From assembly GCA_027491035.1 (NCBI GenBank), contig JAIXWZ010000110.1:7427-71426 (forward strand): 64,000 nucleotides of DNA, written 5' to 3'. The notes beneath the pieces were generated by a model. It saw only the letters and a program-made list of their open reading frames with translations. It was not told the DNA's origin and ran no database searches. Shown piece after piece: positions 9,756-33,014 of this stretch. The translations under genes were made by a program, and so were the position numbers. Source of the DNA: Comamonadaceae bacterium (GTDB lineage: Bacteria; Pseudomonadota; Gammaproteobacteria; Burkholderiales; Burkholderiaceae_C). Numbering within the stretch: position 1 is the stretch's first letter; every line of letters starts with the position of its first letter.

Positions 9756-9757
9756 CC

Positions 9758-10399
9758 ATGAGCTACACCAAACGCAGCAAAGACGCCCTGGCCCAGCGCG
9801 TGGCGCGCGACATCCATGACGGCGCCTACGTCAATCTGGGCATTGGCCAGCCCACGCTGGTGGCCAACCACCTGCCCGCCGGCATTGAAGTGATTTTGCA
9901 CAGCGAAAACGGCATCTTGGGCATGGGCCCGGCCCCAGCGGCCGGCCAAGAAGACTACGACCTGATCAACGCGGGCAAGCAGCCGGTCACACTGCTGCCC
10001 GGTGGCGCCTTCTTCCACCACGCTGACAGCTTTGGCATGATGCGCGGCGGCCACCTCGATATTTGCGTGCTCGGCGCCTTTCAGGTCAGTGCCACGGGCG
10101 ATCTGGCCAACTGGAGCACCGGCGAAAAAGACGCGATTCCTGCGGTGGGCGGCGCCATGGACCTGGCCATCGGCGCCAAGCAAACCTGGGTCATGATGGA
10201 CCTGCTGACCAAGACCGGCCAGTCCAAGGTGGTGCAGCAGTGCGGCTACCCGCTCACCGGCATTGGCTGCGTCAAGCGCATCTACACCGACCTGGCCACC
10301 CTGGCTTGCACACCGCAGGGCTTGCGGCTGATTGACACGGTCGACGGCCTGTCCCATGCCGAGCTCGAGCAGCTGGTGGGCCTGCCTATTGAAGTCTGA
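9758..10399 (+). CDS. pcaJ: 3-oxoadipate CoA-transferase subunit B
   Basis: VNLGIGQPT, catalytic SENG motif, GGAMDLA. Confidence 0.92.
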   Translation: MSYTKRSKDALAQRVARDIHDGAYVNLGIGQPTLVANHLPAGIEVILHSENGILGMGPAPAAGQEDYDLINAGKQPVTLLPGGAFFHHADSFGMMRGGHLDICVLGAFQVSATGDLANWSTGEKDAIPAVGGAMDLAIGAKQTWVMMDLLTKTGQSKVVQQCGYPLTGIGCVKRIYTDLATLACTPQGLRLIDTVDGLSHAELEQLVGLPIEV

Positions 10400-10471
10400 G
10401 ATGGCAAGTCTGAGATGGCCTTTTGAGCCTGCTCGGCGCCGCTTTTTTCTTTTCTTTCCTGTGAGACTTAC

Positions 10472-11674
10472 ATGACCCACGCCTTTGTTTGTGATGCCAT
10501 CCGCACCCCCTTCGGCCGCTACGGCGGCGCGCTTTCGAGCGTGCGCACCGACGACCTGGGTGCGATCCCGCTCAAGGCCCTGATGGCGCGCAACCCCCAG
10601 GTCGACTGGGCGGCCGTCACCGACGTGATTTACGGCTGCGCCAACCAGGCCGGCGAAGACAACCGCAACGTGGCCCACATGGCCAGCTTGCTGGCCGGCC
10701 TGCCGATGGACGTGCCAGGGGCCACCATCAACCGCCTGTGCGGCTCGGGGCTCGATGCGGTCGGAACGGCCGCGCGTGCCATCAAGGCCGGTGAGGCCGG
10801 CCTCATGATTGCCGGCGGCGTCGAAAGCATGAGCCGCGCACCGTTTGTGATGCCCAAGGCCGAAAGCGCGTTTTCGCGCAGCAATGCCGTCTATGACACC
10901 ACCATCGGCTGGCGCTTTGTCAACAAGCTCATGAAAGAAAAGTACGGCGTCGACTCCATGCCGGAGACGGCCGAAAACGTGGCCACCGATTACAAGATCG
11001 AGCGCGAGGCGCAGGACCGCATGGCCCTGGCCAGCCAGATGAAGGCCGTGGCCGCGCAGAAAGCCGGCCACCTGGCCCGCGAAATCTGCCCGGTCACCAT
11101 CCCCCAGAAAAAAGGCGATGCGATCGTGGTCGACAAGGACGAGCACCCGCGCGAGACTAGCTTGGAAGCACTGGCCAAGCTCAAGGGCGTGGTGCGGCCC
11201 GATGGCACGGTGACGGCCGGCAACGCCTCGGGCGTCAATGACGGCTCCTGCGCCTTGCTGCTCGGGAGCGAAGCGGCCGCCGCCAAGAACGGTTTGACCC
11301 CCAAGGCCCGCGTGGTGGGCATGGCCACCGCAGGCCTGGCTCCGCGCATCATGGGCATGGGCCCGGCGCCGGCCACCCGCAAGGTGCTTGAGCTGACCGG
11401 CTTGAGCCTGGCGCAGCTCGACGTGATCGAGCTCAACGAGGCCTTTGCTGCGCAAGGCATTGCCGTGCTGCGCGACCTGGGCCTGGCCGATGACGACGAG
11501 CGCGTCAACGCCTGGGGCGGTGCCATCGCCCTGGGCCACCCCCTGGGCGCCTCGGGCGCCCGCCTGGCCACCACCGCCGTCAACCGCTTGCACGCCACCG
11601 GCGGACGCTATGCGCTGTGCACCATGTGCATCGGCGTGGGGCAGGGCATTGCGCTGATTCTCGAGCGGGTTTGA
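10472..11674 (+). CDS. pcaF: 3-oxoadipyl-CoA thiolase
   Basis: GCANQAGEDNRNVA, NRLCGSG, GHPLGASG, CIGVGQG. Confidence 0.93.
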   Translation: MTHAFVCDAIRTPFGRYGGALSSVRTDDLGAIPLKALMARNPQVDWAAVTDVIYGCANQAGEDNRNVAHMASLLAGLPMDVPGATINRLCGSGLDAVGTAARAIKAGEAGLMIAGGVESMSRAPFVMPKAESAFSRSNAVYDTTIGWRFVNKLMKEKYGVDSMPETAENVATDYKIEREAQDRMALASQMKAVAAQKAGHLAREICPVTIPQKKGDAIVVDKDEHPRETSLEALAKLKGVVRPDGTVTAGNASGVNDGSCALLLGSEAAAAKNGLTPKARVVGMATAGLAPRIMGMGPAPATRKVLELTGLSLAQLDVIELNEAFAAQGIAVLRDLGLADDDERVNAWGGAIALGHPLGASGARLATTAVNRLHATGGRYALCTMCIGVGQGIALILERV

Positions 11675-13728: not shown

Positions 13729-13732
13729 AGCC

Positions 13733-17162: not shown

Positions 17163-17177
17163 AACCGGAGCCAGACC

Positions 17178-17774: not shown

Positions 17775-18658
17775 TGGCGCGCATTGACTTCTTGGGCGTG
17801 GGCAAGATGGGCTTGCCCATGGCGGGGCACCTGAGCCGCGCCGGCCATGCGGTGGCTGTGGCCGATCCCAGCCCCGAGCGCATGGCGCTTGCCGCGCAGG
17901 CGGGCTTGGCCGTGGGCGATGCCCACAGCCTGGCGCAGGCCGACTTCGTGATCTCGTCGCTGCCCCATGATGCGGCCTTGCTGGCCGCTGCCGCGCAGGT
18001 GGCTGCCGGTGCCCGCGCCGGCGCGGTCTACATCGACACCAGCACGGTCTCGGTGCGGGCCTCGGCGCAGGCGGCGGCGCTGTGCAGTGCGCGCGGCATC
18101 GAGCCACTGCGCGTCACGGTGTCGGGCAACAACAAGATGGCCGAGGCCGCGGCGCTGACCATCATGGCCTCGGGCCCGCGCGCCGCTTACGAGCAGGCGC
18201 AAGCCCTGCTGGCTTGTTGGGGCCCGCAGTGCTTCTACCTGGGCGATGCCGAGCAGGCGCGGCTGATGAAGCTGGTGGTCAATTTGCTGATCGCCCAAAC
18301 CAGTGCCATGCTGGCCGAGGGCTTGACGCTCGGGCGCAAGGGCGGCCTCGATTGGCAGGACATGTGGCAGGTGCTGTGCGCCAGCGCAGTCGGCTCGCCC
18401 ATCCTCAAGGCCAAGTCGGTGCAGCTGAGTCAGCGCGACTTCACGCCCACTTTCACCGTCGAGCAGATGATCAAAGACTTGGAGCTGATCGTGGGCGCCG
18501 CCCGCGACGTGCATGCGCCCTTGCCGCAGACCGCAGCGACCTTGCAGCTGATGCATGCGGCCGTTGCGCAGGGCCAGGCCCTGGACGACTACGCGGCCAT
18601 CATCTTGGCGGTCGAGCGCAGTGCGGGCCTGGCCACCGATCTGGAGCGAAAACCCTGA
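17774..18658 (+). CDS. NAD(P)-dependent oxidoreductase, beta-hydroxyacid dehydrogenase family (second paralog)
   Basis: FLGVGKMG, catalytic Lys in LMKLVVN, FTPTFTVEQMIKDL; TGATG coupling to the upstream gene. Confidence 0.87.
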   Translation: MARIDFLGVGKMGLPMAGHLSRAGHAVAVADPSPERMALAAQAGLAVGDAHSLAQADFVISSLPHDAALLAAAAQVAAGARAGAVYIDTSTVSVRASAQAAALCSARGIEPLRVTVSGNNKMAEAAALTIMASGPRAAYEQAQALLACWGPQCFYLGDAEQARLMKLVVNLLIAQTSAMLAEGLTLGRKGGLDWQDMWQVLCASAVGSPILKAKSVQLSQRDFTPTFTVEQMIKDLELIVGAARDVHAPLPQTAATLQLMHAAVAQGQALDDYAAIILAVERSAGLATDLERKP

Positions 18659-19716
18659 TGAACGCCTTCATCTACAACGCCTACGCCGCCCGGGTGGTCT
18701 TTGGTGCGGGCAGCCTCAAGCACCTCGAGCGCGAGATTGACGCCCTGGGCTACAAGCGCGCGCTGGTGCTGTCGACCCCAGAGCAGCGCGCATCGGCGCA
18801 GATGGTGGCCGATCTGCTTGGGGCCCGTGCGGCCGGTGTGTTTGACCGTGCGGTGATGCATGTGCCGATCGAGACCGCCCGCGAAGCGCGCGAGGTGGCG
18901 CGCCAGCTCGGTGCCGACTGCGCGGTGGCCATCGGCGGGGGTTCGACCACTGGCCTGGGCAAAGCCATTGCGCTCGACTCGGGTCTGCCCATCATCGCCA
19001 TCCCCACCACCTATGCCGGCTCGGAGATGACGCCGGTCTACGGCATCACCGAAGGCGGCTTGAAGAAGACCGGCAAGGACGCCAAGGTGGTGCCGCGCGC
19101 CGTCATCTACGACCCCGAGCTCACGGTGAGCTTGCCGCCGGCCATGAGCCTGACCAGTGGCATCAACGCGATTGCCCATTCGGCCGAGGGCCTGTATTCG
19201 GCCGACCGCAACCCGGTGATCGACTTCATGGCGCGCGACGGCATCGCCGCCCTCGGCCGCGCCTTGCCGGCGATCTGCAAGAACCCCCAGGACATGCAGG
19301 CGCGCACCGATGCGTTCTACGGCGCCTGGCTGTGTGGCATCGTGATGGGCAGTGTGGGCATGGCCTTGCACCACAAGCTGTGCCACACGCTGGGCGGCAC
19401 CTTCAATTTGCCCCACGCCGAATGCCATACCGTGGTGCTGCCCCACGCGCTGGCCTACAACGCGCCGGCCGCGCCCGAGGCCATGGCCAAGATCGCGCAA
19501 GCCCTGGGCGGCAGCAGCGGCCCGGCGGCGGTGTTTGATCTGGCCAGAGACAACGGCGCCGCGGTGGCCCTGCGCGATTTGGGCATGAAGCAGGCCGACC
19601 TGGACAAGGCCTGCGACATCGCTGTTCAAAACCAATACCCCAATCCCAGGCCGCTCGATCGGGCGGCTTTGCGGCAGTTGTTTCAAAACGCCTGGGAGGG
19701 CGTGCGGCCGGGGTGA
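18658..19716 (+). CDS. Maleylacetate reductase
   Basis: RVVFGAG, AVMHVP, GGGSTTGLGKA, IPTTYAGSE, HHKLCHTLGGTFNLPHAE; TGATG coupling. Confidence 0.92.
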   Translation: MNAFIYNAYAARVVFGAGSLKHLEREIDALGYKRALVLSTPEQRASAQMVADLLGARAAGVFDRAVMHVPIETAREAREVARQLGADCAVAIGGGSTTGLGKAIALDSGLPIIAIPTTYAGSEMTPVYGITEGGLKKTGKDAKVVPRAVIYDPELTVSLPPAMSLTSGINAIAHSAEGLYSADRNPVIDFMARDGIAALGRALPAICKNPQDMQARTDAFYGAWLCGIVMGSVGMALHHKLCHTLGGTFNLPHAECHTVVLPHALAYNAPAAPEAMAKIAQALGGSSGPAAVFDLARDNGAAVALRDLGMKQADLDKACDIAVQNQYPNPRPLDRAALRQLFQNAWEGVRPG

Positions 19717-19968: not shown

Positions 19969-20895
19969 CTACAAGCCCATCCGTGAGGTCCACTTGCGCT
20001 CGTAATCCATCTTGGCAAAGTGCTCGACCATGAAGTCGATAAAGGTTCGCACTTTGGCCGACAGGTGTTTGCGGCTGGGGTAGGCCAGGTTGATGGTCAA
20101 GCGCGGCAGGTCCCAGTCGTCGAGCACCGGCACCAGGCGGCCGGCTACGATGTCTTCGTAGACGATGTAGGTCGGCTGCACCAAAATGCCCAGCCCGTCG
20201 AGTGCGGCGGCCCGCAGGATCTGGCCGTCGTTCGATTCGAGCAGGCCCTTGACCGACAGCGTGCTGCTCACGCCGCCTTTGGTAAAGCGCAACTCGTTGG
20301 GGTTGTTGGAGTGGGTGTAGATCAGCAGCTTGTGACGCTGCAGCTCTTCCAGGCTGCGCGGCGTGCCGCAGCGCGCCAGGTAGCCGGGCGAGGCGGTCAG
20401 CATGCGGCGCGTCTCGGCCATACGACGGATGGTGATGTTGGAGTCGGGCTCCGATTCCCGGTTGCGAATCGCCACATCGATGTTGTTGTCGATGATGTCC
20501 ATGTAGCGGTTGGCCGCCTCCAGGTGCACCTGCACATTGGGGTAGCGTTGGGTGTATTCGCGCAGCAGCGGCGCCACATGGTGCATCGCAAATGAGAGCG
20601 AGGCGGTGACCCTGAGCACCCCGGTCGGGTTGAGCGCCGTGGCATTGACGGCTGCCTCGGCATCCCTGAGATCGGCCACGATGGTGCGGGCGCGGCTGTG
20701 AAATTCGCGCCCGGTATCGGTCAGGAACAGGCGCCGCGTGTTGCGCTCGACCAGCCGAGCCCCGAGCCTGGCCTCCAAAGCGGCCAGGTGCCTGCTCGCC
20801 GCCGCATTGGACAGCTGCAGCGTCTCGGCGGCGCGGCTGAGGCTGCCGGTTTCGGCCACGCGCACAAACAGTTCGATTTCGGTCCAGCGGTCCAT
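19969..20895 (-). CDS. LysR family transcriptional regulator (CrgA/DmlR-like)
   Basis: HTH GSLSRAAETLQLSNAAASRHLAALEARLG, RNTRRLFLT, SNDGQILRAAALDGLG; start ATG 20895. Confidence 0.92.
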   Translation of the reverse strand: MDRWTEIELFVRVAETGSLSRAAETLQLSNAAASRHLAALEARLGARLVERNTRRLFLTDTGREFHSRARTIVADLRDAEAAVNATALNPTGVLRVTASLSFAMHHVAPLLREYTQRYPNVQVHLEAANRYMDIIDNNIDVAIRNRESEPDSNITIRRMAETRRMLTASPGYLARCGTPRSLEELQRHKLLIYTHSNNPNELRFTKGGVSSTLSVKGLLESNDGQILRAAALDGLGILVQPTYIVYEDIVAGRLVPVLDDWDLPRLTINLAYPSRKHLSAKVRTFIDFMVEHFAKMDYERKWTSRMGL

Positions 20896-20990
20896 GGGCT
20901 CATCGGCGCAGGTCACAAAGGCCGCCGGGCCAGTCGTGCCCGTCGGGAGGGGCTGATGGTAACCGCAAGCGCCCTGGCTGCCTGTCTTTA

Positions 20991-21055
20991 TTCCATTGGG
21001 CGGAAAAGTCATTTACGCAGGCGCTATTTTTCTTCTGGTTTTGAAAATCTATAGT
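20991..21055 (+). promoter_or_regulatory. Putative LysR binding sites and -10 element in the divergent intergenic region
   Basis: TTCC-N7-GGAA (20991-21005) and TTC-N7-GAA (21033-21045), both T-N11-A; TATAGT at 21050-21055. Confidence 0.55.
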
Positions 21056-21091: not shown

Positions 21092-21934
21092 TTGCGCAAC
21101 CTCAATCAGGACACCATCACACAGGCCGTGATCGCACGCCTGTCTGACACGCCTGATGCGCGTCTGAAGGAGGTGCTCACCTGCGTGGTGCAGCATCTGC
21201 ATGCCTTTGCCCGCGAGGTTCATTTGACCGAAGCGGAGTTGCAGGCTGGCATTGAGTTCCTCACCGCGGTGGGCAATAAGTGCAGCGCTTCGCGGCAGGA
21301 GTTTGTTTTGCTGGCCGATGTGCTGGGTCTGTCGACCCTGACGGTGGCCATGAACCATGACAAGCCGGCCGGTTGCACTGAGGCCACCACTTCCGGACCT
21401 TTTTATCTGCCCGATGCCCAGCCCATGGCCAGCGGCGCCGACCTGGCCGGCGGTGCGCCGGGCCAGCCCTGCCTGGTGCGCGGCCGGGTCTGCGCCCTCG
21501 ACGGCGGCCCGGTTGCGGCGGCGCAGGTGGAGGTGTGGCAGTCTGATGCCGATGGCCGCTACGACGTGCAGTACGAAGACCTGGGTGGCCAGCGCGCGCG
21601 CGGCGTGTTTTCCACCGGATCCGATGGCCGTTTTCAATTGCGCAGCGTGCTCGCTTGCCCCTACCCGGTCCCCGAAGATGGGCCGGTGGGCCAGTTGATG
21701 CGCGCATCCAGAGGCCATCCCTGGCGGCCGGCGCACATGCATTTCAGGATCAGTGCGCCCGGTTTTGAGACCCTGGTCACGCAGGTCTACCGCGAGGACG
21801 ACCCGTACCTGGACAGCGATCCGGTTTACGGCGTGCGGCAGTCTTTGGTGGCGCCCTGGGTGCCCGATGAGCAGGGCTTGTACACGCTCGATTTTGATTT
21901 TGTTTTGCAGCGCCGGCGAGGGGGCCAACGTTGA
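21092..21934 (+). CDS. Intradiol dioxygenase, hydroxyquinol 1,2-dioxygenase-like
   Basis: MRNLNQDTITQAV N-terminus, RQEFVLLADVLG, Fe ligands Y (GRYDVQ), Y (CPYPVP), RPAHMH; TTG start with GGAG RBS. Confidence 0.88.
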   Translation: MRNLNQDTITQAVIARLSDTPDARLKEVLTCVVQHLHAFAREVHLTEAELQAGIEFLTAVGNKCSASRQEFVLLADVLGLSTLTVAMNHDKPAGCTEATTSGPFYLPDAQPMASGADLAGGAPGQPCLVRGRVCALDGGPVAAAQVEVWQSDADGRYDVQYEDLGGQRARGVFSTGSDGRFQLRSVLACPYPVPEDGPVGQLMRASRGHPWRPAHMHFRISAPGFETLVTQVYREDDPYLDSDPVYGVRQSLVAPWVPDEQGLYTLDFDFVLQRRRGGQR

Positions 21935-22239
21935 TCAAGCACATCGTCATGTGGAATCTGCGCGGCGAGACCGATCAGGCCAAGGCAGCGGCTGTGGCCA
22001 CGCTCAAGCGCAGTTTTGAGTCGCTGCGTGGCCGCGTTCCTGGGCTGCTGCATCTGGAGATCGGCGTCGATTCGAGTCGCATCGACTACGCCTGCGACGT
22101 GGTCCTGTATTCGGAGTTTGAGTCACAAGCGGCGCTTGATGCCTATGCGGTGCACCCCGAGCACCTGCGCGTCAAGCAGGAGTTGTCTGATTTGCGCATT
22201 GCCCGCCACCAGGTCGACTACCTGGCCGAGCCGCGCTGA
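21931..22239 (+). CDS. Dabb (stress-responsive alpha/beta barrel) family protein
   Basis: MIKHIVMW...LDAYAVHPEH. Confidence 0.88.
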   Translation: MIKHIVMWNLRGETDQAKAAAVATLKRSFESLRGRVPGLLHLEIGVDSSRIDYACDVVLYSEFESQAALDAYAVHPEHLRVKQELSDLRIARHQVDYLAEPR

Positions 22240-22258
22240 ACGCGAGGAGAGTTAGGTC

Positions 22259-22876
22259 ATGGATGCAGCACTGCGCGACGAATTGGAAATCCGGCAGATG
22301 GTCGAGCGCTGGGCGGTTTGGCGCGATGCCGGCGACTGGGAGCGTTTTGCCACCGTCTGGCACCCTGACGGGGTGATGATGGCCACCTGGTTTCAGGGGC
22401 CGTTTCGCGAGTTCATCCGCGTGACCCAGGAGGGCTGGGCCAAGGGCGTGAGCATCTTGCATTTTCTCGGCGGCAGCGCGGTCGAAGTGGCCGGCGATCG
22501 GGCGATTTCGCAAACCAAGATGACGATTTCCCAGCGCGGCATGGTCGAGGGCGCCAGTGGCCCGGTGCTGTGCGATGTGGTGTGCACCGGTCGTTTTTAT
22601 GACTTTGTCACCCGCCATGAGGGCCAGTGGAAGCTTTTGCACCGCCAGCCGATTTACGAGAAGGACCGCATCGATCCGGTCGACCCCAGTGCGGTGCTGC
22701 AACTCGATCAGCAGGCCTTGGCCGGTTTTCCAGAGGGTTATCGCCATCTGGCCTATATTCAGACCCGCATCGGCTACAAGGTCAAGATGGATATGCCGAT
22801 GCTCAAGGGCGAGGGCGTGCAGGCTCTGTACGGGCGCGGCCGCCGCTGGCTGCAAGGCGGCGAGCTCGAGCGCTGA
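22259..22876 (+). CDS. NTF2-like/SnoaL-like domain protein
   Basis: EIRQMVERWAVWRDAGDWERFATVWHPDG, VEVAGDRA, WKLLHR. Confidence 0.8.
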   Translation: MDAALRDELEIRQMVERWAVWRDAGDWERFATVWHPDGVMMATWFQGPFREFIRVTQEGWAKGVSILHFLGGSAVEVAGDRAISQTKMTISQRGMVEGASGPVLCDVVCTGRFYDFVTRHEGQWKLLHRQPIYEKDRIDPVDPSAVLQLDQQALAGFPEGYRHLAYIQTRIGYKVKMDMPMLKGEGVQALYGRGRRWLQGGELER

Positions 22877-23994: not shown

Positions 23995-24579
23995 ATGCCC
24001 ATCTCCGACGCCAGCCTCGATCAGCTTTTTCGCCAAGCCCGCACGGCCAACGGTTTCATTGACAAGCCTGTCGCACCTGCTGTGCTGCGCCAGGTCTACG
24101 AGCTCGCGGCGATGGCGCCGACCTCGATGAACACCCAGCCCACCCGCTATGTGTTTTTGACCACTGCCGCTGCCAAGCAGCGCGTGGCCCCCGCCCTGGC
24201 CCCGGCCAACGTGGACAAGACGGCCTCGGCGCCGGTGTGCGTGATCGTGGCCACCGACACCCGCTTTTATGAGCACATGCCGCAGATCTGGCACAAGCCG
24301 GAGGCCAAGGCCATGTTCGAAGGCAATGCCGGCATGGCGTCGGCCACGGCGATTCGCAACGGCACCCTGGGCGGCGCCTATTTCATTTTGGCCGCGCGCG
24401 CCTTCGACCTCGATTGCGGTCCGATGAGCGGCGTCGATCTGGCCAAGGTCAATGCCGAGTTCTTCCCCGATGGTCGCTACCAGGCCAATTTCCTGATCAA
24501 CCTGGGCTATATGGACAAGAGCAAGCTGTTCGATCGCAACCCGCGTCTGGCCTTCGAGCAGGCCTGCGAGGTGCTTTGA
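23995..24579 (+). CDS. Nitroreductase-family protein, RutE/malonic semialdehyde reductase-like
   Basis: LFRQART, APTSMNTQP, RAFDLDCGPMSG, NFLINLGY, RNPRLAFE. Confidence 0.85.
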   Translation: MPISDASLDQLFRQARTANGFIDKPVAPAVLRQVYELAAMAPTSMNTQPTRYVFLTTAAAKQRVAPALAPANVDKTASAPVCVIVATDTRFYEHMPQIWHKPEAKAMFEGNAGMASATAIRNGTLGGAYFILAARAFDLDCGPMSGVDLAKVNAEFFPDGRYQANFLINLGYMDKSKLFDRNPRLAFEQACEVL

Positions 24580-24640
24580 ACTCTGGGCGCCGACGGACCC
24601 GCATCCGCACAACGCATTGACATCATCGAGGGAGCTTCAA

Positions 24641-25438
24641 TTGAAAATCGGCAAATCCATCATTCCGCACACGGCCATCAGCACATCGAGCGAGCAGCGC
24701 ATCGTGGTGCGCGGCCATGACCTGTCTCGTGACCTGATTGGTCAGGTCAATTTCGGCGACTACTTTTTCCTCTTGCTGACCGGCAAGATGCCCGATGCGG
24801 CGACCAGCGCCTTGGTCAACGCCACCATGGTGGCCATTGCCGAGCACGGTTTGGTGCCCAGCAACCAGGCAGCGCGCATGACGCTGGCGGCAGCGCCCGA
24901 TGCGATGCAAGGCGCGGTAGCCGCCGGCATCTTGGGTGCGGGTTCGGTGGTGCTGGGCGCCTCCGAGACGGCGGGCAAACTCTTTTTGCGCGTCGAGGCC
25001 GAGGCAGCGGCCAACCACGGCGGCGATCTCAAGGCAGCGGCCAAGGCGGTGGTTGCCGATCTGCGCGCCAACAAGCAGATCGTGCCGGGCTATGGTCATC
25101 CGGAGCACAAGAGCGCCGATCCGCGTGTGGGCGCCTTGTTTGCGCTGTCGGCTCGCGTCGGTGGCGGGCAGAAGTATGTGGAGCTCTCGCGCATCATTGA
25201 GTCTGTGATTCCCGAGGTGACGGGCAAGGACTTGCCGATGAATGTCTCGGCGGCGATTCCCGCGGTGCTGATGGGCGTCAATTTCCCGGTGACCGCGCTC
25301 AAGGGCGTGCCCATGCTGGCCCGCGTGGCCAGCTTGATTGCCCACCTCAATGAGGAAATGGCCGATCCGATCGGTTTTGCACTGGCCAACCACGCGGTGT
25401 CCCAGCAGCAGTACACCGGTACCCCTGCAAAGGATTGA
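24641..25438 (+). CDS. Citrate-synthase-fold protein (citryl-CoA lyase-like)
   Basis: VRGHDLSRDLIG, AEHG, PGYGH, NVS; short single-domain size; TTG start with GGGAG RBS. Confidence 0.82.
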   Translation: MKIGKSIIPHTAISTSSEQRIVVRGHDLSRDLIGQVNFGDYFFLLLTGKMPDAATSALVNATMVAIAEHGLVPSNQAARMTLAAAPDAMQGAVAAGILGAGSVVLGASETAGKLFLRVEAEAAANHGGDLKAAAKAVVADLRANKQIVPGYGHPEHKSADPRVGALFALSARVGGGQKYVELSRIIESVIPEVTGKDLPMNVSAAIPAVLMGVNFPVTALKGVPMLARVASLIAHLNEEMADPIGFALANHAVSQQQYTGTPAKD

Positions 25439-25440
25439 TC

Positions 25441-26586
25441 ATGGTCCAGGTTCTTAAAGACATCAAGGTCGTCGAGCACGGCACCTTCATCACCGGCCCG
25501 TTTGCCGGCATGATGCTGGCCGATCTGGGCGCCGACGTGGTCAAGGTCGAACTGCCCGGCACGGGCGACCCGTTTCGCGCTTACCGCGGCGAGCTCTACA
25601 GCCCGCACTTTCAGTCGTGCAACCGCAACAAGCGCTCGATCACGCTCAACACCAAGGACGCGGCCGAGTTGGCGCGCTTTGACGAGATGATCGCGCAGGC
25701 CGACGTCTACATCCAAAATTTTCGCCCCGGTGTGGCCGAAAAGCTCGGCGCCGGCTACGAGCGCCTGAAGAAAATCAACCCGCGTCTGATCTATTGCGCC
25801 ATCAGCGGCTTTGGCCGCGATGGCCCTTACAGCGATCGGCCCAGCTACGACTCGGTGGCGCAGGCCTACAGCGGCTTTCTGGGCTTGCTGGTCAACCCTA
25901 ACGACCCGCGGGTGGTGGGGCCGGCCCTGGCCGATGCGATGACCGGCTTTTACTCGGCCTATGGTGTGCTGGGCGCCCTGCACGAGCGCAACAGCACGGG
26001 CAAGGGCCGTCTGGTGGAGGTCTCGATGATCGAGGCCATGACGCACTTCAACCTCGACTCCTTCACCCACCTCTTTACCATCGGTCAGCTGGTCGATCCC
26101 TTCAGCCGGGCGCGGCTCTCGCAGTCGTATGTGCTCGAGTGTTCCGACGGCAAGTGGGTGGCCCTGCACATGTCCTCGCCGCCCAAGTTCTGGGAGGGCT
26201 TGGCCAAGGCGATGGAGCGCTCCGACATCTTTGATGATCCGCGCTTTTCCACCCGCGAGGGGCGTGCCGAGAACCAGGAGGCCTTGATCGGTGTACTACA
26301 GGCGGTGTTCAAGCACCGCACTCGCACCGAGTGGTGCAACCGTCTGCTCGCCGAGGATGTGCCGCACGCGCCCATGTACAACTCGGCCGAGGTGCCCGAA
26401 GACCCGCAGATCCAGCATCTGCAGATGTTTGTGGAAGCGCCTTCGCCGGTCAAAGGCATGTTCAAGACGGTGCGCTCGCCGGTGTCCTATGACGGCGAGC
26501 GTTCGCTCAAGGTCACGGCGCCGCCGCTGCTCGGTCAGCACAACGAAGAGTTCAAGACGGGCTGGCCGGCGCGGCCAGACGCCTGA
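25441..26586 (+). CDS. CoA-transferase family III (CaiB/BaiF)
   Basis: GPFAGMMLADLGADVVKVE, NRNKRSITL, NFRPG, SYD (catalytic Asp), PPLLGQH. Confidence 0.93.
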   Translation: MVQVLKDIKVVEHGTFITGPFAGMMLADLGADVVKVELPGTGDPFRAYRGELYSPHFQSCNRNKRSITLNTKDAAELARFDEMIAQADVYIQNFRPGVAEKLGAGYERLKKINPRLIYCAISGFGRDGPYSDRPSYDSVAQAYSGFLGLLVNPNDPRVVGPALADAMTGFYSAYGVLGALHERNSTGKGRLVEVSMIEAMTHFNLDSFTHLFTIGQLVDPFSRARLSQSYVLECSDGKWVALHMSSPPKFWEGLAKAMERSDIFDDPRFSTREGRAENQEALIGVLQAVFKHRTRTEWCNRLLAEDVPHAPMYNSAEVPEDPQIQHLQMFVEAPSPVKGMFKTVRSPVSYDGERSLKVTAPPLLGQHNEEFKTGWPARPDA

Positions 26587-26602: not shown

Positions 26603-27571
26603 ATGGTGCAAATCAAGCGACGCCTGGCTTTGGCGCTGGGCTGCCTGCTCACGGCAAGTTGGGTCATGGCGCAGGACTTTCCGGTCAAGCCGGTGCGCAT
26701 GGTGGTGCCCTTTGCGGCCGGCACCACCACCGACATCGTGGCGCGCGCTGTGGCCGAAGGCATGGCCCGCCAGCTCGGGCAGTCTGTGGTGGTGGAAAAC
26801 CGCGCCGGCGCGGGGGGCGGCATCGGCTCCGATCTGGTGGCCAAATCCTCGGCCGACGGCTACACCATTTTGATGGGCACGGTGGGGACGCACGCCATCA
26901 ATGCCACGCTGTTCAAGAAGCTTGCCTACGACCCGCAGCGCGACTTCGCTCCCGTGGCTTTTGCCGGCTACACGCCCACTTTGCTGGTGGTCTCTGGCGC
27001 CTCGCCGGTCAAGTCGCTCAAGGACTTGGCCGATTTGGCCCGGCGACCCGATGGCCGGGTGAGCTTTGCGTCGGCCGGCAACGGCACCTCTGGCCATCTG
27101 GCCGGCGAGCTGCTCAAGGCGCGCTTGGGCGGTGAGATGACCCATGTGCCCTACAAGGACGGCGCCCTGGCGCTGTCCGATGTCATGGGTGGGCAGGTGC
27201 AGTTCATGTTCTACCACCCCGCCGCCGCGCTGCCGCACATCAAGAGCGGCAAGTTGCGCGCCCTCGGCGTCTCGAGCGCCAAGCGCAGCCCTGCGGCGCC
27301 CGAGGTGCCCGCCATTGCGGAGGCTGGCCTCGACTTTGATCTGGTGGCCTGGTTCATGGTCTACGCGCCAGCGGCCACGCCCGCGCCGGTGCTGGCTCGC
27401 CTGCGCGATGCGGCAGCGCAGACCCTGGCCAACGCCGACATTGCAGGGCGTCTCAAGGCCCAGGGGCTTGAGCTCAATGCGATGCGCGCCGAAGAAATGA
27501 CGGCATTTGGCCGCAGTGAGTTGGCCAAGTGGGCCGAGTTGGTCAGGCGATCGGGCGCCCAGGTGGATTGA
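26603..27571 (+). CDS. Bug/TctC family receptor
   Basis: FPVKPVRMVVPFAAGTTTD, ENRAGAGG, HVPYK. Confidence 0.92.
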   Translation: MVQIKRRLALALGCLLTASWVMAQDFPVKPVRMVVPFAAGTTTDIVARAVAEGMARQLGQSVVVENRAGAGGGIGSDLVAKSSADGYTILMGTVGTHAINATLFKKLAYDPQRDFAPVAFAGYTPTLLVVSGASPVKSLKDLADLARRPDGRVSFASAGNGTSGHLAGELLKARLGGEMTHVPYKDGALALSDVMGGQVQFMFYHPAAALPHIKSGKLRALGVSSAKRSPAAPEVPAIAEAGLDFDLVAWFMVYAPAATPAPVLARLRDAAAQTLANADIAGRLKAQGLELNAMRAEEMTAFGRSELAKWAELVRRSGAQVD

Positions 27572-27610: not shown

Positions 27611-28813
27611 ATGAAAAAAATCGATCGACGCTCGGTGCTGGCCGCTGGCGCTGCAGGCGCCGCCCTGGCGATGACCTCCAGCGCCCGCGCCCAAGGCGCG
27701 CCGATTCGCATCGGCAGCACGCTGGCCCTGACCGGCCCGCTGTCGGCCACCGGCCTGACGCACAAGCTGGTGGGCGACATTTACGTCGAGCAGCTCAACG
27801 CGCGCGGCGGCTTGCTCGGTCGCAAGGTCGAGTGGATCTGCCGGGACGACCAGTCCAAGCCCGATCTGGCCCGCACCTTGTACGAGCAGCTGATCACCAC
27901 CGACAAGGTGGAGCTGCTCATGGGGCCCTATGCCACCGGCGCCATTTTGTCGGCCATGGGCGTGGCACAGCGCTACGGCAAGGTGCTGGTCCACCACACC
28001 TTCGGCATCCCCTCGCTGGCCAAGTACGACATGCACTTTCCGGCCTGGTCGCTTGGCCCCACGCCCCAGACCACGGTGCCCAACACCCTGTTTGACATGC
28101 TGGCCGCTTCGCCCAAGCCACCCAAGACGATCGCCATCGTCACCAGCAAGTTCCCCTCGATCCACTTCCTCTCGCTCGGTGGCCGTGAAGTGGCCAAGAA
28201 GCGCGGTCTGCAGGAGGTGCTCTTCCTGGAGTGGGAATTTGGCAACCGCGACTTCGGCCCGATCGCCGCGCGCATCAAGGACTCCAAGCCCGATCTGGTC
28301 TGGGTCGGTGACATCGGCCTGGAGGGCAATATGTTGCTCGACGCGATGAAGAAGATCGACTACACGCCGCCGATGAACTTCCACCTCTACCCGGCGCCGG
28401 GCCCGATGTCGAAGTCGCCCGAAGGCCGTGGCGCCATGTCGCTGACCATCTTTGAAGAGCACCAGCCCTTCCTGAGCAACCAGGTCGGCGCGCAGTTCGT
28501 CAAGGTCTTCAACGAGCGGGCCACGGCCGCCAAGCTGGCCGACACCAGCGTGGAGACGCAGGCAGCCGCCTCGTTTTCGGCCTGGCAGATTCTGGAGGCC
28601 GGCGTCAGGGGTGCCAACAGCCTGGACGACAAGGCCATTGCCGCCTTCATCAAGGGCAACCGCATCGACACCATCCACGGCCGTCTGCGCTTTGATGGGC
28701 CGAACAACTACGGTGATGACCTGATGAAGATCAAGCAGGTCCAAAACGGCAAGTGGCAGGTGGTTTGGCCCCAGCAATTTGCAGCGCCGGGCACCCGACT
28801 GCAACTCAAGTAA
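27611..28813 (+). CDS. Branched-chain amino acid-type ABC substrate-binding protein (Tat signal)
   Basis: DRRSVL Tat leader, GGLLGRKVE, DDQSKP. Confidence 0.88.
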   Translation: MKKIDRRSVLAAGAAGAALAMTSSARAQGAPIRIGSTLALTGPLSATGLTHKLVGDIYVEQLNARGGLLGRKVEWICRDDQSKPDLARTLYEQLITTDKVELLMGPYATGAILSAMGVAQRYGKVLVHHTFGIPSLAKYDMHFPAWSLGPTPQTTVPNTLFDMLAASPKPPKTIAIVTSKFPSIHFLSLGGREVAKKRGLQEVLFLEWEFGNRDFGPIAARIKDSKPDLVWVGDIGLEGNMLLDAMKKIDYTPPMNFHLYPAPGPMSKSPEGRGAMSLTIFEEHQPFLSNQVGAQFVKVFNERATAAKLADTSVETQAAASFSAWQILEAGVRGANSLDDKAIAAFIKGNRIDTIHGRLRFDGPNNYGDDLMKIKQVQNGKWQVVWPQQFAAPGTRLQLK

Positions 28814-28855
28814 TTGAGTTCGGGCCGATCTTTTGCACACCACAGCAGGGCACCC

Positions 28856-29713
28856 ATGACGCTTCCGAGTCTTAACTTACTGTTGCAGTCCATCCTCTCG
28901 GGGGTCTTCATCGGTGCCCTCTATGGCTTGATCGGCCTGGGGTTGGGCCTGACCTGGGGCTTGCTGCGCCAGATCAACCTGTCGCATTTCGGTCTGGTCT
29001 TCCTGGCCGCCTATCTGAGCTATCAGATGGCCACGGTCGGCCAGTTCGATCCTCTGCTGGCCCTGCTGGTGCTGCCGCCGCTGTTTTTCCTGTTCGGCGC
29101 GCTCATGCAGTGGGTGCTGTCGAAGTTTGCGATCACGCCCTTTAACTCTCTGCTGGCCACCTTCGGTTTGACGGTGGTGCTCGAGTCCATCATCCAGGGC
29201 ATCTGGACGGCCGATTTCCGGCGCCTGGAGTCGGGCTACAACGACCTCAAGTTCAAGGTCTTTGGCCTGTTTGTGCCGGTGCCTGAACTGATCACCTTCT
29301 GCCTGGCAGTCGGCATCGCAGTGGCCATCTGGGCGGCCATGCGTTACACCGATCTGGGCAAGGCCTTGCGGGCGATGGCCGAAGACGGCCCGATTGCGGC
29401 GGCCTTTGGCATCAACCAAAAGGGCCTGTCGCTGATTCTGGCGGGCGTGTGCGCCGCGCTGGCAGCCATCGCTGGCGTCTGCCTGGCCCTGACGTTCACG
29501 CTGGCGCCCTCACAGATTTTTGCCTGGGTGGGCGTGGTGTTTGCCGCGGTGATGCTCGGCGGGCTCGGCAGCCCGCTCGGGCCCTTGGTGGCGGGCATCA
29601 TCATTGGCGTGAGCGAGGCCATCACCATGGCGGTGGCTTCACCGTCATGGGCGCCGATCGTCTCCTTCTCCCTGCTCATCGTCATGCTGCTGCTGCGGCC
29701 CGGAAAGGGCTGA
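28856..29713 (+). CDS. Branched-chain amino acid-type ABC permease (LivH-like)
   Basis: GALYGL, INLSH, TDLGKALRAMAED, LGGLGS. Confidence 0.88.
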   Translation: MTLPSLNLLLQSILSGVFIGALYGLIGLGLGLTWGLLRQINLSHFGLVFLAAYLSYQMATVGQFDPLLALLVLPPLFFLFGALMQWVLSKFAITPFNSLLATFGLTVVLESIIQGIWTADFRRLESGYNDLKFKVFGLFVPVPELITFCLAVGIAVAIWAAMRYTDLGKALRAMAEDGPIAAAFGINQKGLSLILAGVCAALAAIAGVCLALTFTLAPSQIFAWVGVVFAAVMLGGLGSPLGPLVAGIIIGVSEAITMAVASPSWAPIVSFSLLIVMLLLRPGKG

Positions 29714-29718
29714 TCGCC

Positions 29719-31486
29719 ATGAACAAAACGTTTTCCGGGATTTTGGCCGCCGGCGCGCTGCTGGCTGTGGTGCCCTGGTTGGGCCTGCCCGCCTTCTACG
29801 AGTCCTTCCTCTACCTGATCGCGCACTGGGTGATCCTGGCCATGTCCTGGAACATCCTTTCGGGCTATTCGGGGTATTTCTCCTTTGGCCACGGCGTTTT
29901 TTATGGCGTGGGCATGTATGCCACCGCGGGCCTGGCCGGCAAGCTGGACTGGCCCTTCTTGGCCACCTTGCCGATGGCCGTGCTGATCCCGGCTGTGCTG
30001 GGCGTGTTGCTGGGCGCTGTGGTGTTTCGGGTCAAGGCGGTGCGCGGCGAGCTGTTTGCGCTCTTGACGCTGGCCGTCACCTTCGTGGTGGCCACCATCA
30101 TCATCAACACCCGCATCGATGGCGGCCCTGGCGTCTACCTGATGGCCGTTGAAGTGCCCAAGCTCGGGCCCTCACCGTCGTCGTCGCTCTACCTGATGGC
30201 GCTCATCGGCGCGGTGCTGACGGCACTGGTTGCCTACAAGGTGCAGCAGTCCAAGCTGGGCGTGGGCCTGTCGGCCATTCATGACGACGAAGATGTGGCC
30301 GAGGTCATGGGTGTGCCCACCTATGGCTACAAGCTGCTGGCGCTGGCTCTGTCGAGCGGCCTGGCGGGGCTGGCTGGCGGCATTCATGCGCTGTTCGTGC
30401 AGTACGTCACGGTGGGCGAGACCTTCAACATCACCGTGCCACTGACGGTGGTGCTGATGAGCTGCCTGGGCGGCTCGCGCCACTGGGCCGGCCCTGCGGT
30501 TGGCGCGGTGCTGATCACCTCGATGCTGTACTTTTTCACCGCCGGCAACAACCCCGTGCTGGGCAAGGCGGTGGTGGGCGTGGTGCTCATCGTGGTGATT
30601 TTGTTCATGCCCAATGGCGTGATGGGTTTCTTTATGAAGCGCCGCGCACAGGCAGCCGCGCGCCGCAGCCGTGAGATCGAGCAGAGCCTGGGCGCAGCGC
30701 TCCATGCGGGCCTGCCGCCCGAGCCCGACGTCGTGGCTGCGCCCCGGCCAGCCGCCGACCAAGAAGCGCAGGTCTTGCTGCAAACGCGCGGCCTGTCCAA
30801 GGCCTTCAAGGGCGTGCAAGCCCTCAGCGAGGTGGACTTGCAGGTTCACAAGGGCGAGATCCTGGGCTTGCTCGGCCCCAACGGCTCGGGCAAGTCGACC
30901 TTTATCAACGTGGTCAGCGGCCACTACGTGGCCACCGGCGGCAGCTATGCCTTCGAAGGCCGTGAACTGGCCGGCATGGCCGCGCACCAGATCGCGCAGT
31001 CGGGCATTGCGCGCACCTACCAGATCCCGCGGCCCTTCATGCACATGACGGTGCTGGAGAACGTGATCATGTCGGCCATGTTTGGCGGCGCGGCCATGGG
31101 GCGCGAGCAGGCCACAGAAGAGGCCATGCGCTGCCTGGAGTTCACGGGTCTGAAGCACAAGGCCGAGAGCCTGCCCGATGACCTGAATCTGCATCAGCGC
31201 AAGTTTCTCGAATTGGCCCGCGCGCTGGCCGCCCGGCCTCGGCTGGTGCTGCTCGACGAGGTGCTCTCGGGCATGACGCCCAGCGAGATCGACGAGGCCA
31301 TTGTGCTGATTCGCCGTATTCGCGATCAGGGCTCGACCATCGTGTTCGTCGAGCACGTCATGCGCGCGGTCATGGCCTTGTGTGACCGGGTGGCGGTGCT
31401 CAACCATGGCAAGCTGATCGCGGTTGGGCCGGCCAAGCAGGTGATGAGCGATCCGCAAGTTGTCAGTGCCTACCTGGGGAAGCCCC

Positions 31487-31494
<8 letters not shown>
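29719..31494 (+). CDS. Fused ABC permease/ATP-binding protein (LivM-LivG)
   Basis: N-terminal SGYSGYFSFGH TM domain; C-terminal GPNGSGKST and LLDE. Confidence 0.9.
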
Positions 31495-32200
<706 letters not shown>

Positions 32201-32264: not shown

Positions 32265-33014
32265 ATGGCCCTGATCACCGATCCCTTTTTCTACGCGGTT
32301 GCCATCCCATCGGTTTTGCTGATGGGGGTCAGCAAGAGTGGCTTTGGTACCGGCTTTGGCTCGCTGGCCGTGCCCTTGATGGCGCTGGCCGTGAGCGTTC
32401 CCGACGCGGCGGCCATCATGATGCCGGTGCTCTTGCTGACCGATATCCTCAGCCTGGCTTTTTTTCGCAACCAACTCGACTGGCGTCTGCTCAAATTTCT
32501 CGTGCCTTGCGGTCTGGTGGGCACCGTGCTGGGTTTCATGCTGTTTCGGCTGCTTAGCCCCGGCGTGGTGGAGGCGCTGGTGGGCGGTTTTACGCTGCTG
32601 TTTTTGGCGCAGCGCCTGCTGTTGCCACCCAAACCCGATGCCCCGCCGCCGCCGCGCTGGGTGGGCGCCATCTTGACCGCCACTTCGGGCTTTACCAGCT
32701 TCATTGCGCACGCCGGTGGCCCGCCGATCAGCGCCTATGTGATTCCGCTCAAACTCAGTCCGGTGCTGTTTACCTCGACCATGGCGGTGTTCTTCTTTGT
32801 CATCAACCTGTCCAAGTGGATTCCCTACGGCTTTCTGGGTCTGCTGGACATGCGCAACATGCTCACCTCGCTGGTGTTGCTGCCCTTGGTGCCTTTGGGC
32901 GTTTGGGTGGGCGTGCGCCTGGCCCGCCGAATCAAGCCCGACCTGTTTTACAAGTTCATCTATGCCGGGATGTTTCTGACCGGCCTGAAGCTGCTCTGGG
33001 ACGGGCTGCGCTGA
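32265..33014 (+). CDS. TSUP/TauE/SafE family transporter
   Basis: GVSKSGFGTGFG, AHAGGPP; multi-TM. Confidence 0.87.
   Translation: MALITDPFFYAVAIPSVLLMGVSKSGFGTGFGSLAVPLMALAVSVPDAAAIMMPVLLLTDILSLAFFRNQLDWRLLKFLVPCGLVGTVLGFMLFRLLSPGVVEALVGGFTLLFLAQRLLLPPKPDAPPPPRWVGAILTATSGFTSFIAHAGGPPISAYVIPLKLSPVLFTSTMAVFFFVINLSKWIPYGFLGLLDMRNMLTSLVLLPLVPLGVWVGVRLARRIKPDLFYKFIYAGMFLTGLKLLWDGLR

Follow-up and report, generated by a model that had tools for sequence, protein, structure and literature searches.

A citrate-synthase-fold protein with serine at the position of the catalytic aspartate, encoded with a family III CoA-transferase among aromatic ring-cleavage genes, and the reaction that the pair may perform

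The described proteins closest to the one analysed here are Hydrogenobacter thermophilus Ccl (PDB 6hxp) and the CCL module of ATP-citrate lyase, which, like it, consist of a citrate-synthase fold of ~260 aa with no N-terminal extension. Ccl has a SucCD-like citryl-CoA synthetase as partner and is encoded among reductive-TCA genes. Citrate synthase and 2-methylcitrate synthase are homologous to our protein in its C-terminal catalytic region; citrate synthase has, between its N-terminal region and the catalytic core, a ~130-residue segment that our protein lacks. By function, the comparison is with bacterial citrate lyase CitDEF and with the Ict/Ccl (itaconate) and SmtAB/Mcl (malate) systems, the last two of which pair a family III transferase with a CitE-type lyase: the transferase loads the acid on a thiol carrier and the lyase frees an acetyl-thioester and a carbonyl product. 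Since the acetyl-thioester can reload the next substrate, CitDEF-type logic has no need of ATP. Finally, PcaIJ and PcaF carry out CoA transfer followed by C2-C3 cleavage to acetyl-CoA; here the transferase belongs to family I, the cleaving enzyme is a thiolase and the substrate is the acid made by maleylacetate reductase.

The window (the whole 64,000-nucleotide stretch of DNA analysed, from a Comamonadaceae bacterium) encodes a short citrate-synthase-fold protein of 265 aa (24641..25438, + strand), hereafter the lyase-like protein, whose partner is a CoA-transferase. The ORF 24617-25438 (+) contains no internal stops on translation. Its likely start is the TTG at 24641, as the earlier note on this DNA had proposed: a GAGGGAG ribosome-binding site ends 6 nt before it, and the resulting length of 265 aa is that of the homologues (264-267 aa) and also fits the short fold of ~260 aa typical of citryl-CoA lyases. 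The protein matches Pfam Citrate_synt (9.6e-25) and belongs to the NF004868 family, with 314.9 bits against a curated cut-off of 193. Its best score with the synthase models is 56.8 bits for a cut-off of 421, which places it outside the citrate synthases and 2-methylcitrate synthases. The best PDB sequence match is 6hxp, the Hydrogenobacter citryl-CoA lyase (HMMER, E 1.6e-26), with only 27% identity; 6hxp is also the best fold match (TM 0.69/0.73) for the AF2 model, whose mean pLDDT is 75 and reaches 92-93 near the motif discussed below. The protein-atlas entry for this protein carries the same automatic names and nothing further.

The order of motifs in the lyase-like protein is that of GltA from the same genome, namely ADH(E/G) ... 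G(F/Y)GH ... DPR ... NV(D/S) ... R..G..AH..E. Both catalytic His motifs (containing the equivalents of His274 and His320 of pig citrate synthase) are retained, as the earlier note had stated: AEHG (24839..24850, +; residues 75-78 in 273-aa numbering, used throughout), whose counterpart in the own-genome citrate synthase is ADHE, and PGYGH (25085-25099, +; residues 157-161). In the alignments the latter extends into PGYGHPEH...DPR (25085..25126, +), which holds the equivalents of His320 and Arg329 together with an additional conserved residue, His164. His77 is invariant in 121 of 121 nearest homologues and in all 80 species loci collected (56-98% identity), and H161, H164, R170 and R236 are likewise invariant in the 80 loci. 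Thus, the equivalents of His274, His320, Arg329 and Arg401, all of which are shared with 6hxp, are kept in 80/80 species. In citrate synthase, the two Arg bind the oxaloacetate carboxylates. Such invariance suggests an active enzyme that may still bind a thioester and a carboxylate.

Two other active-site features are lost. Where citrate synthase and the solved citryl-CoA lyases read N-V-D, the lyase-like protein reads N-V-S, encoded by AAT GTC TCG (25241..25249, +; residues 209-211); translation confirms this observation, which was the starting point of the earlier note. The Ser aligns without gaps to the N-V-D of 6hxp (HMMER) and to the PNVD of the own-genome citrate synthase (MAFFT), that is, to the Asp known as Asp375 in pig citrate synthase and Asp1026 in ATP-citrate lyase. 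Ser211 is invariant in the 121 nearest homologues (68-92% identity) and in the 80 loci, so that all 201 members of this group deviate from the Asp expected in a citryl-CoA lyase. Its codons over the 80 loci are TCG (55), TCC (17), TCT (5) and TCA (3). TCG differs from GAC and GAT at all three codon positions; this and the invariance of the residue mean that the Ser is due neither to chance nor to sequencing error. Judging from its invariance and from the use of four synonymous codons, Ser at the Asp375 position is selected and under purifying selection. The other loss is that of the citrate-binding HGGAN, which is replaced by VVLGAS (24947..24964, +; His238 to Val and Asn242 to Ser, if His238 and Asn242 of the pig enzyme are correctly assigned to the HGG motif). 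The site reads V-L-G-A-S-E as compared with AHGGAN in the own-genome citrate synthase and HGG in Asp-bearing relatives, and it is I/V-L in 80/80 loci, which departs from the HGG(A)(N/L)E of citryl-CoA lyases. This change of the HGG His to Val or Ile had been overlooked in the earlier note. A scan at the sequence level for acidic residues typical of the clade returned E195 alone. Without the Asp base, condensation is not expected of the lyase-like protein; with the second citrate-binding residue lost as well, a citryl-CoA-type site is unlikely, in agreement with the suggestion that its chemistry is distinct from that of canonical citryl-CoA lyase.

How much does the family name say about function? 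NF004868 (PRK06224.1-5, named 'citryl-CoA lyase') also gives 284-349 bits with proteins that have Thr, Ala or Asp at the Asp position, and membership is therefore uninformative on the activity named. Asp or Glu is kept at the Asp position in only 10 of 66 NF004868 representatives; the other residues found there are Thr (22), Ala (13-15), Ser (9-10) and also Val, Pro and Gly. Going by these alignments, loss of the Asp is the rule across the NF004868 radiation and not a peculiarity of the window's gene. The earlier note had missed this general trend. Its idea that N-V-S might define a subfamily linked to CaiB genes, on the other hand, holds: the phylogeny places the N-V-S proteins in one well-supported monophyletic clade inside NF004868, and they are physically tied to one CaiB orthologue. 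Relatives that keep both the Asp and the HGG form a separate clade (support 98/85) and adjoin ATP-dependent ligases, not CaiB; a SucCD-like synthetase is present at 1 of the 3 examined (directly upstream of the Asp-bearing relative P0235). A literature search returned no paper on the N-V-S or Asp-less subfamily.

The partner gene (25441..26586, +) encodes a family III (CaiB/Frc-type) CoA-transferase of 381 aa. Its most likely start is the ATG at 25441, 2 nt after the end of the TGA (25436-25438) of the lyase-like gene; the two genes do abut, as had been noted. The protein matches Pfam CoA_transf_3 (3e-104) over positions 1-366 of 366, and in alignments its invariant Asp167 falls at the active-site Asp of YfdE, SUGCT and formyl-CoA transferase, the residue that is catalytic in family III CoA-transferases; the full-length domain and this Asp are what is expected of a member of that family. 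Among solved structures, a formyl-CoA transferase and SUGCT come closest (~1e-56). Scoring against the named family III equivalogs (formyl-CoA, succinate-glutarate, succinyl-CoA:mesaconate, oxalate and carnitine) gave at best 219, 204 and 200 bits for cut-offs of 442, 750 and 700, so that the protein falls outside all of them. By sequence similarity, the transferases closest to it are those for dicarboxylates, for example SUGCT. An orthologue occurs in 73 of the 80 loci: in 57 it directly follows the lyase-like gene, and in 12 it lies upstream of that gene and has the same orientation. Six loci with sufficient flanking sequence have no adjoining transferase.

The two genes belong to a co-directional run that is opened by genes for an intradiol ring-cleavage dioxygenase, a Dabb-barrel protein and a SnoaL_4 protein (21092..22876, +; Pfam), in an order conserved in congeners. 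A nitroreductase-fold, RutE-like FMN protein (23995..24579, +; Pfam Nitroreductase) is encoded 61 nt upstream of the lyase-like gene; it scores 265.8 bits with NF003768 (cut-off 152), a model named 'malonic semialdehyde reductase'. Downstream, as the earlier note had indicated, are Bug and Liv-type transporters: a Bug/TctC-family periplasmic carboxylate receptor with a signal peptide, 'Bug2' (26603..27571, +; Pfam TctC 7.3e-68), and a Liv-type ABC importer (27611..32200, +; Pfam) made of a binding protein, a permease, a fused permease-ATPase (29719-31494) and an ATPase. The run is closed by a TauE/SafE (TSUP) family membrane protein (32265..33014, +; Pfam TauE 1.2e-33), conserved in congeners. 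On the other side, a divergent LysR-type regulator (19969..21012, -; Pfam HTH_1 and LysR_substrate) is preceded by a maleylacetate reductase of the Fe-ADH family (18652..19716, +; PDB 3jzd 4e-149, 3hl0 2.5e-115, 3w5s 6e-114). The regulator resembles YafC/TtdR-type LysR proteins, a resemblance that gives no clue to the effector. The dioxygenase and the reductase, ~2.7 kb and ~5 kb upstream of the lyase-like gene, are the genes expected of a hydroxyquinol/maleylacetate cluster. Further upstream, canonical PcaI, PcaJ and PcaF (3-oxoadipate CoA-transferase and thiolase; 9054..11674, +) score 368, 283 and 700.7 bits with TIGR02429, TIGR02428 and TIGR02430, in each case above the cut-off. No ATP-grasp or CoA-ligase gene, and hence no SucCD-like partner, was found among the genes between 9 and 35 kb of the window.

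Gene context was counted over the 80 species loci by tblastn with the window's proteins; a GC3-based gene caller, with which the lyase-like gene was lost in 23-32 loci, was not used for these counts. A hydroxyquinol 1,2-dioxygenase-type gene (1tmx, 1e-77) lies immediately upstream in 48 of the 80 loci, and a maleylacetate reductase homologue directly precedes the lyase-like gene in five Alcaligenaceae loci. Bug2 orthologues of at least 50% identity are found in 55/80 loci, the Liv-type importer downstream in 36/80 and the nitroreductase-fold gene in 16/80 (Saccharospirillum included). The earlier note had linked the module to an unspecified hydroxy-acid; the strongest link in gene context is instead to maleylacetate reductase and an intradiol dioxygenase of the hydroxyquinol type. 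A LysR homologue (at least 40% identity) is divergently upstream in most loci, including autonomous three-gene units in which LysR is followed by the lyase-like, transferase and Bug genes alone (Cupriavidus, Bordetella, Achromobacter and Pseudomonas). Such self-contained units imply that the products of the module enter central metabolism without other dedicated enzymes. In a Ramlibacter locus, an FAD aromatic hydroxylase is encoded ~6 kb downstream of the lyase-like gene, past the Liv transporter genes.

PcaF and a homologue of PcaI were present in 10 of 10 other genomes tested (11 of 11 counting the window), and a maleylacetate reductase orthologue in the first five of these as well, often beside PcaF/PcaI. 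The module as a necessary replacement for PcaIJ/PcaF or for maleylacetate reductase was rejected on account of this co-occurrence; with PcaI, PcaJ and PcaF available, another pathway for unsubstituted 3-oxoadipate would be redundant and wasteful of thioester. With the queries used, neither hydroxyquinol dioxygenase nor maleylacetate reductase was found in Bordetella petrii NSA17 and in a Pseudomonas, 2 of the 5 autonomous-unit genomes, both of which have the module. The substrate therefore need not derive from hydroxyquinol, and maleylacetate as an obligatory substrate is weakened.

The reading that we favour, although tentatively and at somewhat less than even confidence, is that the pair works in two steps, as an 'activate, then cleave' module whose substrate is a maleylacetate/3-oxoadipate-type dicarboxylate. 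Citryl-CoA would not be the substrate since the His that binds the central carboxylate and the Asp base are both lost. The family III CoA-transferase would shift CoA from succinyl- or acetyl-CoA to the dicarboxylate, and the citrate-synthase-fold protein would then cleave C2-C3 of the acyl-CoA in the style of an acetyl-CoA enolate, either by retro-aldol on a 3-hydroxy acyl-CoA or by hydrolytic retro-Claisen on a 3-oxo acyl-CoA, giving acetyl-CoA and a carbonyl or carboxyl compound. The best candidates for the substrate would be the maleylacetate, 3-oxoadipate or 3-hydroxyadipate-stage acids of hydroxyquinol-type ring cleavage, or else substituted versions beyond the reach of PcaIJF. We infer reaction type, CoA donor and substrate from the fold, residues, subfamily invariance and gene linkage observed. 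By analogy, the proposed logic is that of CitDEF, Ict/Ccl and SmtAB/Mcl, with acetyl-CoA possibly recycled as donor; the module differs from these in having a lyase of the citrate-synthase and not the CitE/HpcH fold. The proposed sequence of steps is also that of PcaIJ/PcaF, whose substrate is made by the enzyme encoded next to the module. In comparison with Ccl, the synthetase would be replaced by a CoA-transferase and the reductive-TCA setting by aromatic ring cleavage. To our knowledge, hydrolytic retro-Claisen or similar chemistry is undescribed for the citrate-synthase fold, and with no acidic residue at the Asp position the enolate would seem to have no obvious proton donor.

A role without C-C cleavage to acetyl-CoA is also worth considering, if rather doubtful: the protein could perform other enolate or thioester chemistry on the CoA-ester made by the transferase, as a tautomerase, cis-trans isomerase, decarboxylase (of 2-carboxy or 3-oxo acyl-CoA), hydratase or thioesterase. 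The general base is missing, and the Asp position holds a variable small residue throughout the radiation, which argues that the shared chemistry needs no acid or base there. Moreover, both polarising His are kept and would suit enol/enolate stabilisation without deprotonation of an unactivated methyl, and ring-fission products, maleylacetate for one, require isomerisation, being 1,3-dicarbonyl/enol systems. However, every characterised citrate-synthase-fold member that we know of forms or breaks the bond between C2 of acetyl-CoA and a carbonyl; the autonomous units, with no further catabolic enzyme, are best explained by a product that is already a central metabolite; and a thioesterase beside a CoA-transferase would be futile. 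Alternatively, the module could act before ring cleavage, taking a side chain of two carbons off an aromatic or quinol-type 3-hydroxy-acyl-CoA in the form of acetyl-CoA, with the aldehyde or quinone passed to the neighbouring reductase and dioxygenase. The adjoining nitroreductase-fold protein could then be a quinone reductase, the Ramlibacter hydroxylase would fit, and so would the persistence of the module in genomes where no hydroxyquinol dioxygenase was found. We nevertheless regard such a role as unlikely: the two invariant Arg equivalents favour an aliphatic carboxylate in the pocket, the transferase is similar to enzymes that act on dicarboxylates, no aromatic genes lie close to the autonomous units and the position of maleylacetate reductase in the Alcaligenaceae points downstream of cleavage.

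Could the annotation simply be correct? A citryl-CoA lyase that tolerates Ser would, together with the transferase, convert citrate to acetyl-CoA and oxaloacetate without ATP. The NF004868 score, the closest solved structure and the membership of the neighbouring receptor in the TctC (citrate receptor) family all agree with this, and one group argues that Asp1026, the equivalent residue of human ATP-citrate lyase, is not catalytic for cleavage (PMC10115795). Yet the replacement of Asp375 by Ser and that of His238/Asn242 by Val/Ser occur jointly and invariantly, the relatives with both residues are set apart in their own clade, one of the three examined beside a SucCD-like synthetase, and the conserved neighbours are ring-cleavage and not citrate genes, which makes the annotated activity very unlikely. 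Most improbable in our estimate is a non-catalytic protein serving as a scaffold, CoA-ester binder or regulatory subunit of the transferase. Loss of the base and the tight coupling of the two genes speak for it, as does the allosteric role proposed for the citrate-synthase-homology module of ATP-citrate lyase (PMC10115795); the invariance of His77, His161, His164, Arg170 and Arg236, the purifying selection on Ser and the 6 loci that hold the lyase-like gene without an adjoining transferase speak against it.

From the residues and gene linkage described above, the lyase-like protein and its CoA-transferase probably perform an undescribed reaction. It is conceivable, although we consider it doubtful, that the N-V-S clade, possibly together with the rest of the Asp-less and HGG-less NF004868 radiation, is a new functional class of citrate-synthase-fold enzymes which, with the dedicated CoA-transferase, would form a CoA-recycling, ATP-independent branch of aromatic catabolism that cleaves maleylacetyl-, 3-oxoadipyl- or substituted CoA to acetyl-CoA and a C4 acid without a thiolase. 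The name 'citryl-CoA lyase', carried by this protein and thousands of relatives, can suggest a capacity for reductive TCA or for the cleavage of citrate, which is probably absent. As a well-defined unit of two genes, the module lends itself to testing, and it occurs in culturable Variovorax, Cupriavidus, Bordetella, Achromobacter and Hydrogenophaga. Hydroxyquinol-type ring cleavage is a route for many phenolic, nitro- and chloro-aromatic compounds; once the substrate is identified, the catabolism of aromatics or of dicarboxylates would gain a step, and it would also become clear what a citrate-synthase active site is capable of without its aspartate.

The open reading frame at 24617-25438 (+) translates cleanly, and the true start of the lyase-like gene is almost certainly the TTG at 24641, six bases 3' of GAGGGAG; the start coordinate in the earlier note (24641) agrees with these signals and with the resulting length of 265 amino acids, the same as that of the homologues. 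Residue numbers used here are those of the 273-aa ORF (minus 8 for the 265-aa protein). Among family models it hits Pfam Citrate_synt (9.6e-25) and, in NCBIfam, NF004868 'citryl-CoA lyase' (314.9 bits; cut-off 193). Of the solved structures, the Hydrogenobacter citryl-CoA lyase 6hxp comes closest (1.6e-26 by sequence; TM 0.69/0.73 for the AF2 model, pLDDT 92-93 around the motif), followed in the fold ranking by the CCL modules of ATP-citrate lyases. The motifs are AEHG (residues 75-78), PGYGH (157-161) and N-V-S (209-211; AAT GTC TCG at 25241-25249).

The earlier claim that Ser replaces the catalytic Asp is borne out by the alignment of N-V-S, free of gaps, with N-V-D of 6hxp, and by its alignment with PNVD of the citrate synthase of the same genome. 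The Ser is not noise, because TCG has no base in common, at any of the three positions, with either Asp codon, N-V-S is invariant (121/121 nearest database homologues at 68-92% identity; 80/80 best species loci at 56-98% identity) and several Ser codons (TCG, TCC, TCT, TCA) are used across these 80 loci, which come from Comamonadaceae, Alcaligenaceae, Burkholderiaceae, Saccharospirillum and one Pseudomonas. His77, His161, His164, Arg170 and Arg236 are likewise invariant in 80/80. The possibility, raised earlier, that another acid occupies the Asp375 position is narrowed by a sequence scan, in which E195 is the sole acidic residue invariant in the N-V-S clade and not also found in Asp-bearing relatives, but some other side chain may reach the site.

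A second motif has also changed: citrate synthase and the Asp-bearing short relatives have H-G-G-A-(N/x)-E where the lyase-like protein has V-L-G-A-S-E, and the HGG site is I/V-L in 80/80 species loci. We take the H and N of H-G-G-A-N-E to be the citrate-binding His238 and Asn242 of pig citrate synthase. Among 66 full-length representatives of the 50%-identity clusters nearest to the lyase-like protein, the Asp position holds Thr (22), Ala (15), Ser (9), Asp (9), Glu (1) or other residues (10). In a maximum-likelihood tree a small clade retains HGG and N-x-D (support 98/85), a large clade of 59 representatives is HGG-less (99/93), and the N-V-S group nests within the latter as a monophyletic subfamily (99/96), a point that the earlier note had asked to be checked. 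NF004868 also scores HGG-less Thr, Ala and Asp variants highly (homologues P0136, P0144, P0147 and P0208, 284-349 bits); therefore, the name 'citryl-CoA lyase' covers a radiation that mostly lacks the two citrate-site residues. In a small sample of three loci, members of the Asp-bearing clade neighbour a SucCD-like synthetase, fumarase-type subunits or AMP-forming ligases, and no CaiB was found beside them. On metagenome contig L108 (2463-5771), a short citrate-synthase-like gene with Asp and HGG lies directly 3' of ATP-grasp and CoA-ligase (SucCD-like) genes and is followed by an amidohydrolase, with PrpD-like and NicX-like genes close by; the arrangement suggests a synthetase paired with a lyase, in a setting that is non-autotrophic and possibly concerned with N-heterocycles.

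As the earlier note had it, the lyase-like gene abuts a CaiB/BaiF transferase, with Bug and Liv-type transporters downstream. The most likely start of CaiB is ATG 25441; two bases separate it from the TGA (25436-25438) of the lyase-like gene, within whose 3' end the ribosome-binding site of CaiB (AAGGA) sits. The product is a full-length family III CoA-transferase (Pfam 3e-104), and its invariant Asp167 falls, in alignment, on the active-site Asp region of YfdE, SUGCT and formyl-CoA transferase. Next in order are a Bug/TctC receptor that carries a signal peptide (26603-27571), a Liv-type ABC system and a TauE-family membrane protein. LivM-type permease and LivG-type ATPase are fused in one 591-aa ORF (29719-31494), a fusion kept in relatives such as Ramlibacter, where the called gene has 577 aa.

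The link between N-V-S and CaiB genes, also proposed for checking, is borne out: a CaiB orthologue (at least 55% identity) is present at 73/80 loci, immediately downstream of the lyase-like gene at 57 of these 73 and upstream on the same strand at 12; at 6/80 none was found despite room in the locus. The downstream Bug has an orthologue at 55/80. An intradiol dioxygenase homologue of the hydroxyquinol 1,2-dioxygenase type (1tmx, 1e-77; PnpC, 5e-77) lies immediately upstream of the lyase-like gene at 48/80. In congeners of the window's source, a Polaromonas MAG, the whole array is conserved: divergent LysR, intradiol dioxygenase, Dabb, SnoaL_4, Bug, nitroreductase-fold protein, lyase-like gene, CaiB, Bug, LivKHMGF and TauE. 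Other Polaromonas carry this hydroxyquinol-type enzyme, as a second dioxygenase, and a 259-aa gene between the nitroreductase-fold and lyase-like genes (10258-12012 in L020, a Polaromonas-like congener); both were lost in the sub-lineage of the window, leaving a 61-nt gap (24580-24640). The 259-aa gene had no family match; elsewhere, a Ramlibacter locus has a 254-aa gene weakly matching Phenol_MetA_deg (outer-membrane channel family). Five Alcaligenaceae loci have a four-gene unit of Bug, maleylacetate reductase homologue, lyase-like gene and CaiB, the reductase being directly upstream of the lyase-like gene. The Saccharospirillum operon comprises lyase-like gene, CaiB, dioxygenase, TRAP transporter, nitroreductase-fold protein and amidohydrolase, and in Cupriavidus, Bordetella, Achromobacter, Burkholderia and Pseudomonas a minimal unit (LysR, lyase-like gene, CaiB and sometimes Bug) has unrelated flanks.

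The nitroreductase-fold gene (23995-24579) matches the RutE-type 'malonic semialdehyde reductase' model NF003768 (265.8 bits; cut-off 152), has no Rut pathway nearby and recurs with the module as far as Saccharospirillum; its product could reduce an aldehyde-acid or a quinone. Dabb-barrel and SnoaL_4 genes (21931-22876), 3' of the first dioxygenase and kept with it in congeners (76-92% identity), matched no NCBIfam model and may act on the ring-fission product as isomerases or through lactone chemistry. Further upstream, a co-directional block (12745-19716) encodes a HIBADH-type dehydrogenase, a TRZ/ATZ-like amidohydrolase (NF006056, 559 bits), a Bug receptor, a leaderless NMT1-like protein, a CMD-family protein, a second HIBADH-type dehydrogenase and a maleylacetate reductase (Fe-ADH, 18652-19716; 3hl0, 2.5e-115). 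A PIN-domain ORF (12029-12544), possibly a toxin-antitoxin remnant, separates this block from the pca genes. At four Rubrivivax loci (L056, L057, L063 and L064), homologues of the two dehydrogenases, the amidohydrolase and the Bug (window 12.7-18.7 kb) lie directly downstream of lyase-like gene, CaiB and Bug; therefore, the window's two halves seem to form a single catabolic supercluster.

The module is probably not a gap-filler in the 3-oxoadipate pathway: PcaI, PcaJ and PcaF are encoded 13 kb upstream (9054-11674, all above NCBIfam equivalog or subfamily cut-offs), and PcaF and a PcaI homologue occur in 10/10 other genomes tested. The maleylacetate reductase has orthologues in all five genomes of the first test set, often adjoining pca genes. 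Strict dependence on hydroxyquinol is also probably excluded, since the module occurs in Bordetella petrii NSA17 and Pseudomonas sp. LRF_L74, in which the queries used found neither a hydroxyquinol-type dioxygenase nor a maleylacetate reductase.

Judged from sequence, the family III transferase is catalytically intact, and the protein coupled to it has the citrate-synthase fold. This partner retains both the His that polarises the thioester/enolate and the carbonyl/hydroxyl His, together with two carboxylate-binding Arg, and lacks both the Asp base and the His/Asn holding a citrate carboxylate in citrate synthase. We tentatively favour, at somewhat less than even confidence, a route in which the transferase would form a dicarboxylyl-CoA and the lyase-like protein would cleave its C2-C3 bond, releasing acetyl-CoA. 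No counterpart of citrate's central carboxylate would be expected in the substrate, hydrophobic Val/Ile-Leu standing where citrate synthase has His-Gly. The substrate may be a 3-oxo acid, with a C2 that is activated from the start; an Asp base would then not be needed or would even do harm. The candidate substrates are 3-oxoadipyl-, maleylacetyl- and 3-hydroxyadipyl-CoA, or substituted analogues not accepted by PcaIJF. If acetyl-CoA were the donor, CoA would, speculatively, cycle as in citrate lyase. An aldehyde-acid product would fit the RutE-like reductase and the nearby HIBADH-type dehydrogenases; a quinone-reductase role would fit equally well.

With the same polarising His, the protein might instead perform non-lyase enolate chemistry on a CoA ester, which we regard as rather unlikely. 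A role of the module upstream of ring cleavage appears improbable. A true citryl-CoA lyase, as the annotation reads, is very doubtful for a protein without the citrate-site residues; it is kept in play because Asp1026 of human ATP-citrate lyase, at the equivalent position, is in one published view not the cleavage catalyst (PMC10115795). Least probable of all is a non-catalytic partner, a reading that the His and Arg residues invariant in all 80 loci speak against.

No paper on the N-V-S subfamily was found. The product name 'citryl-CoA lyase' has spread through NF004868 to proteins mostly without citrate-site residues, and the N-V-S module represents a widespread, mis-named form of a fold and module type already known.
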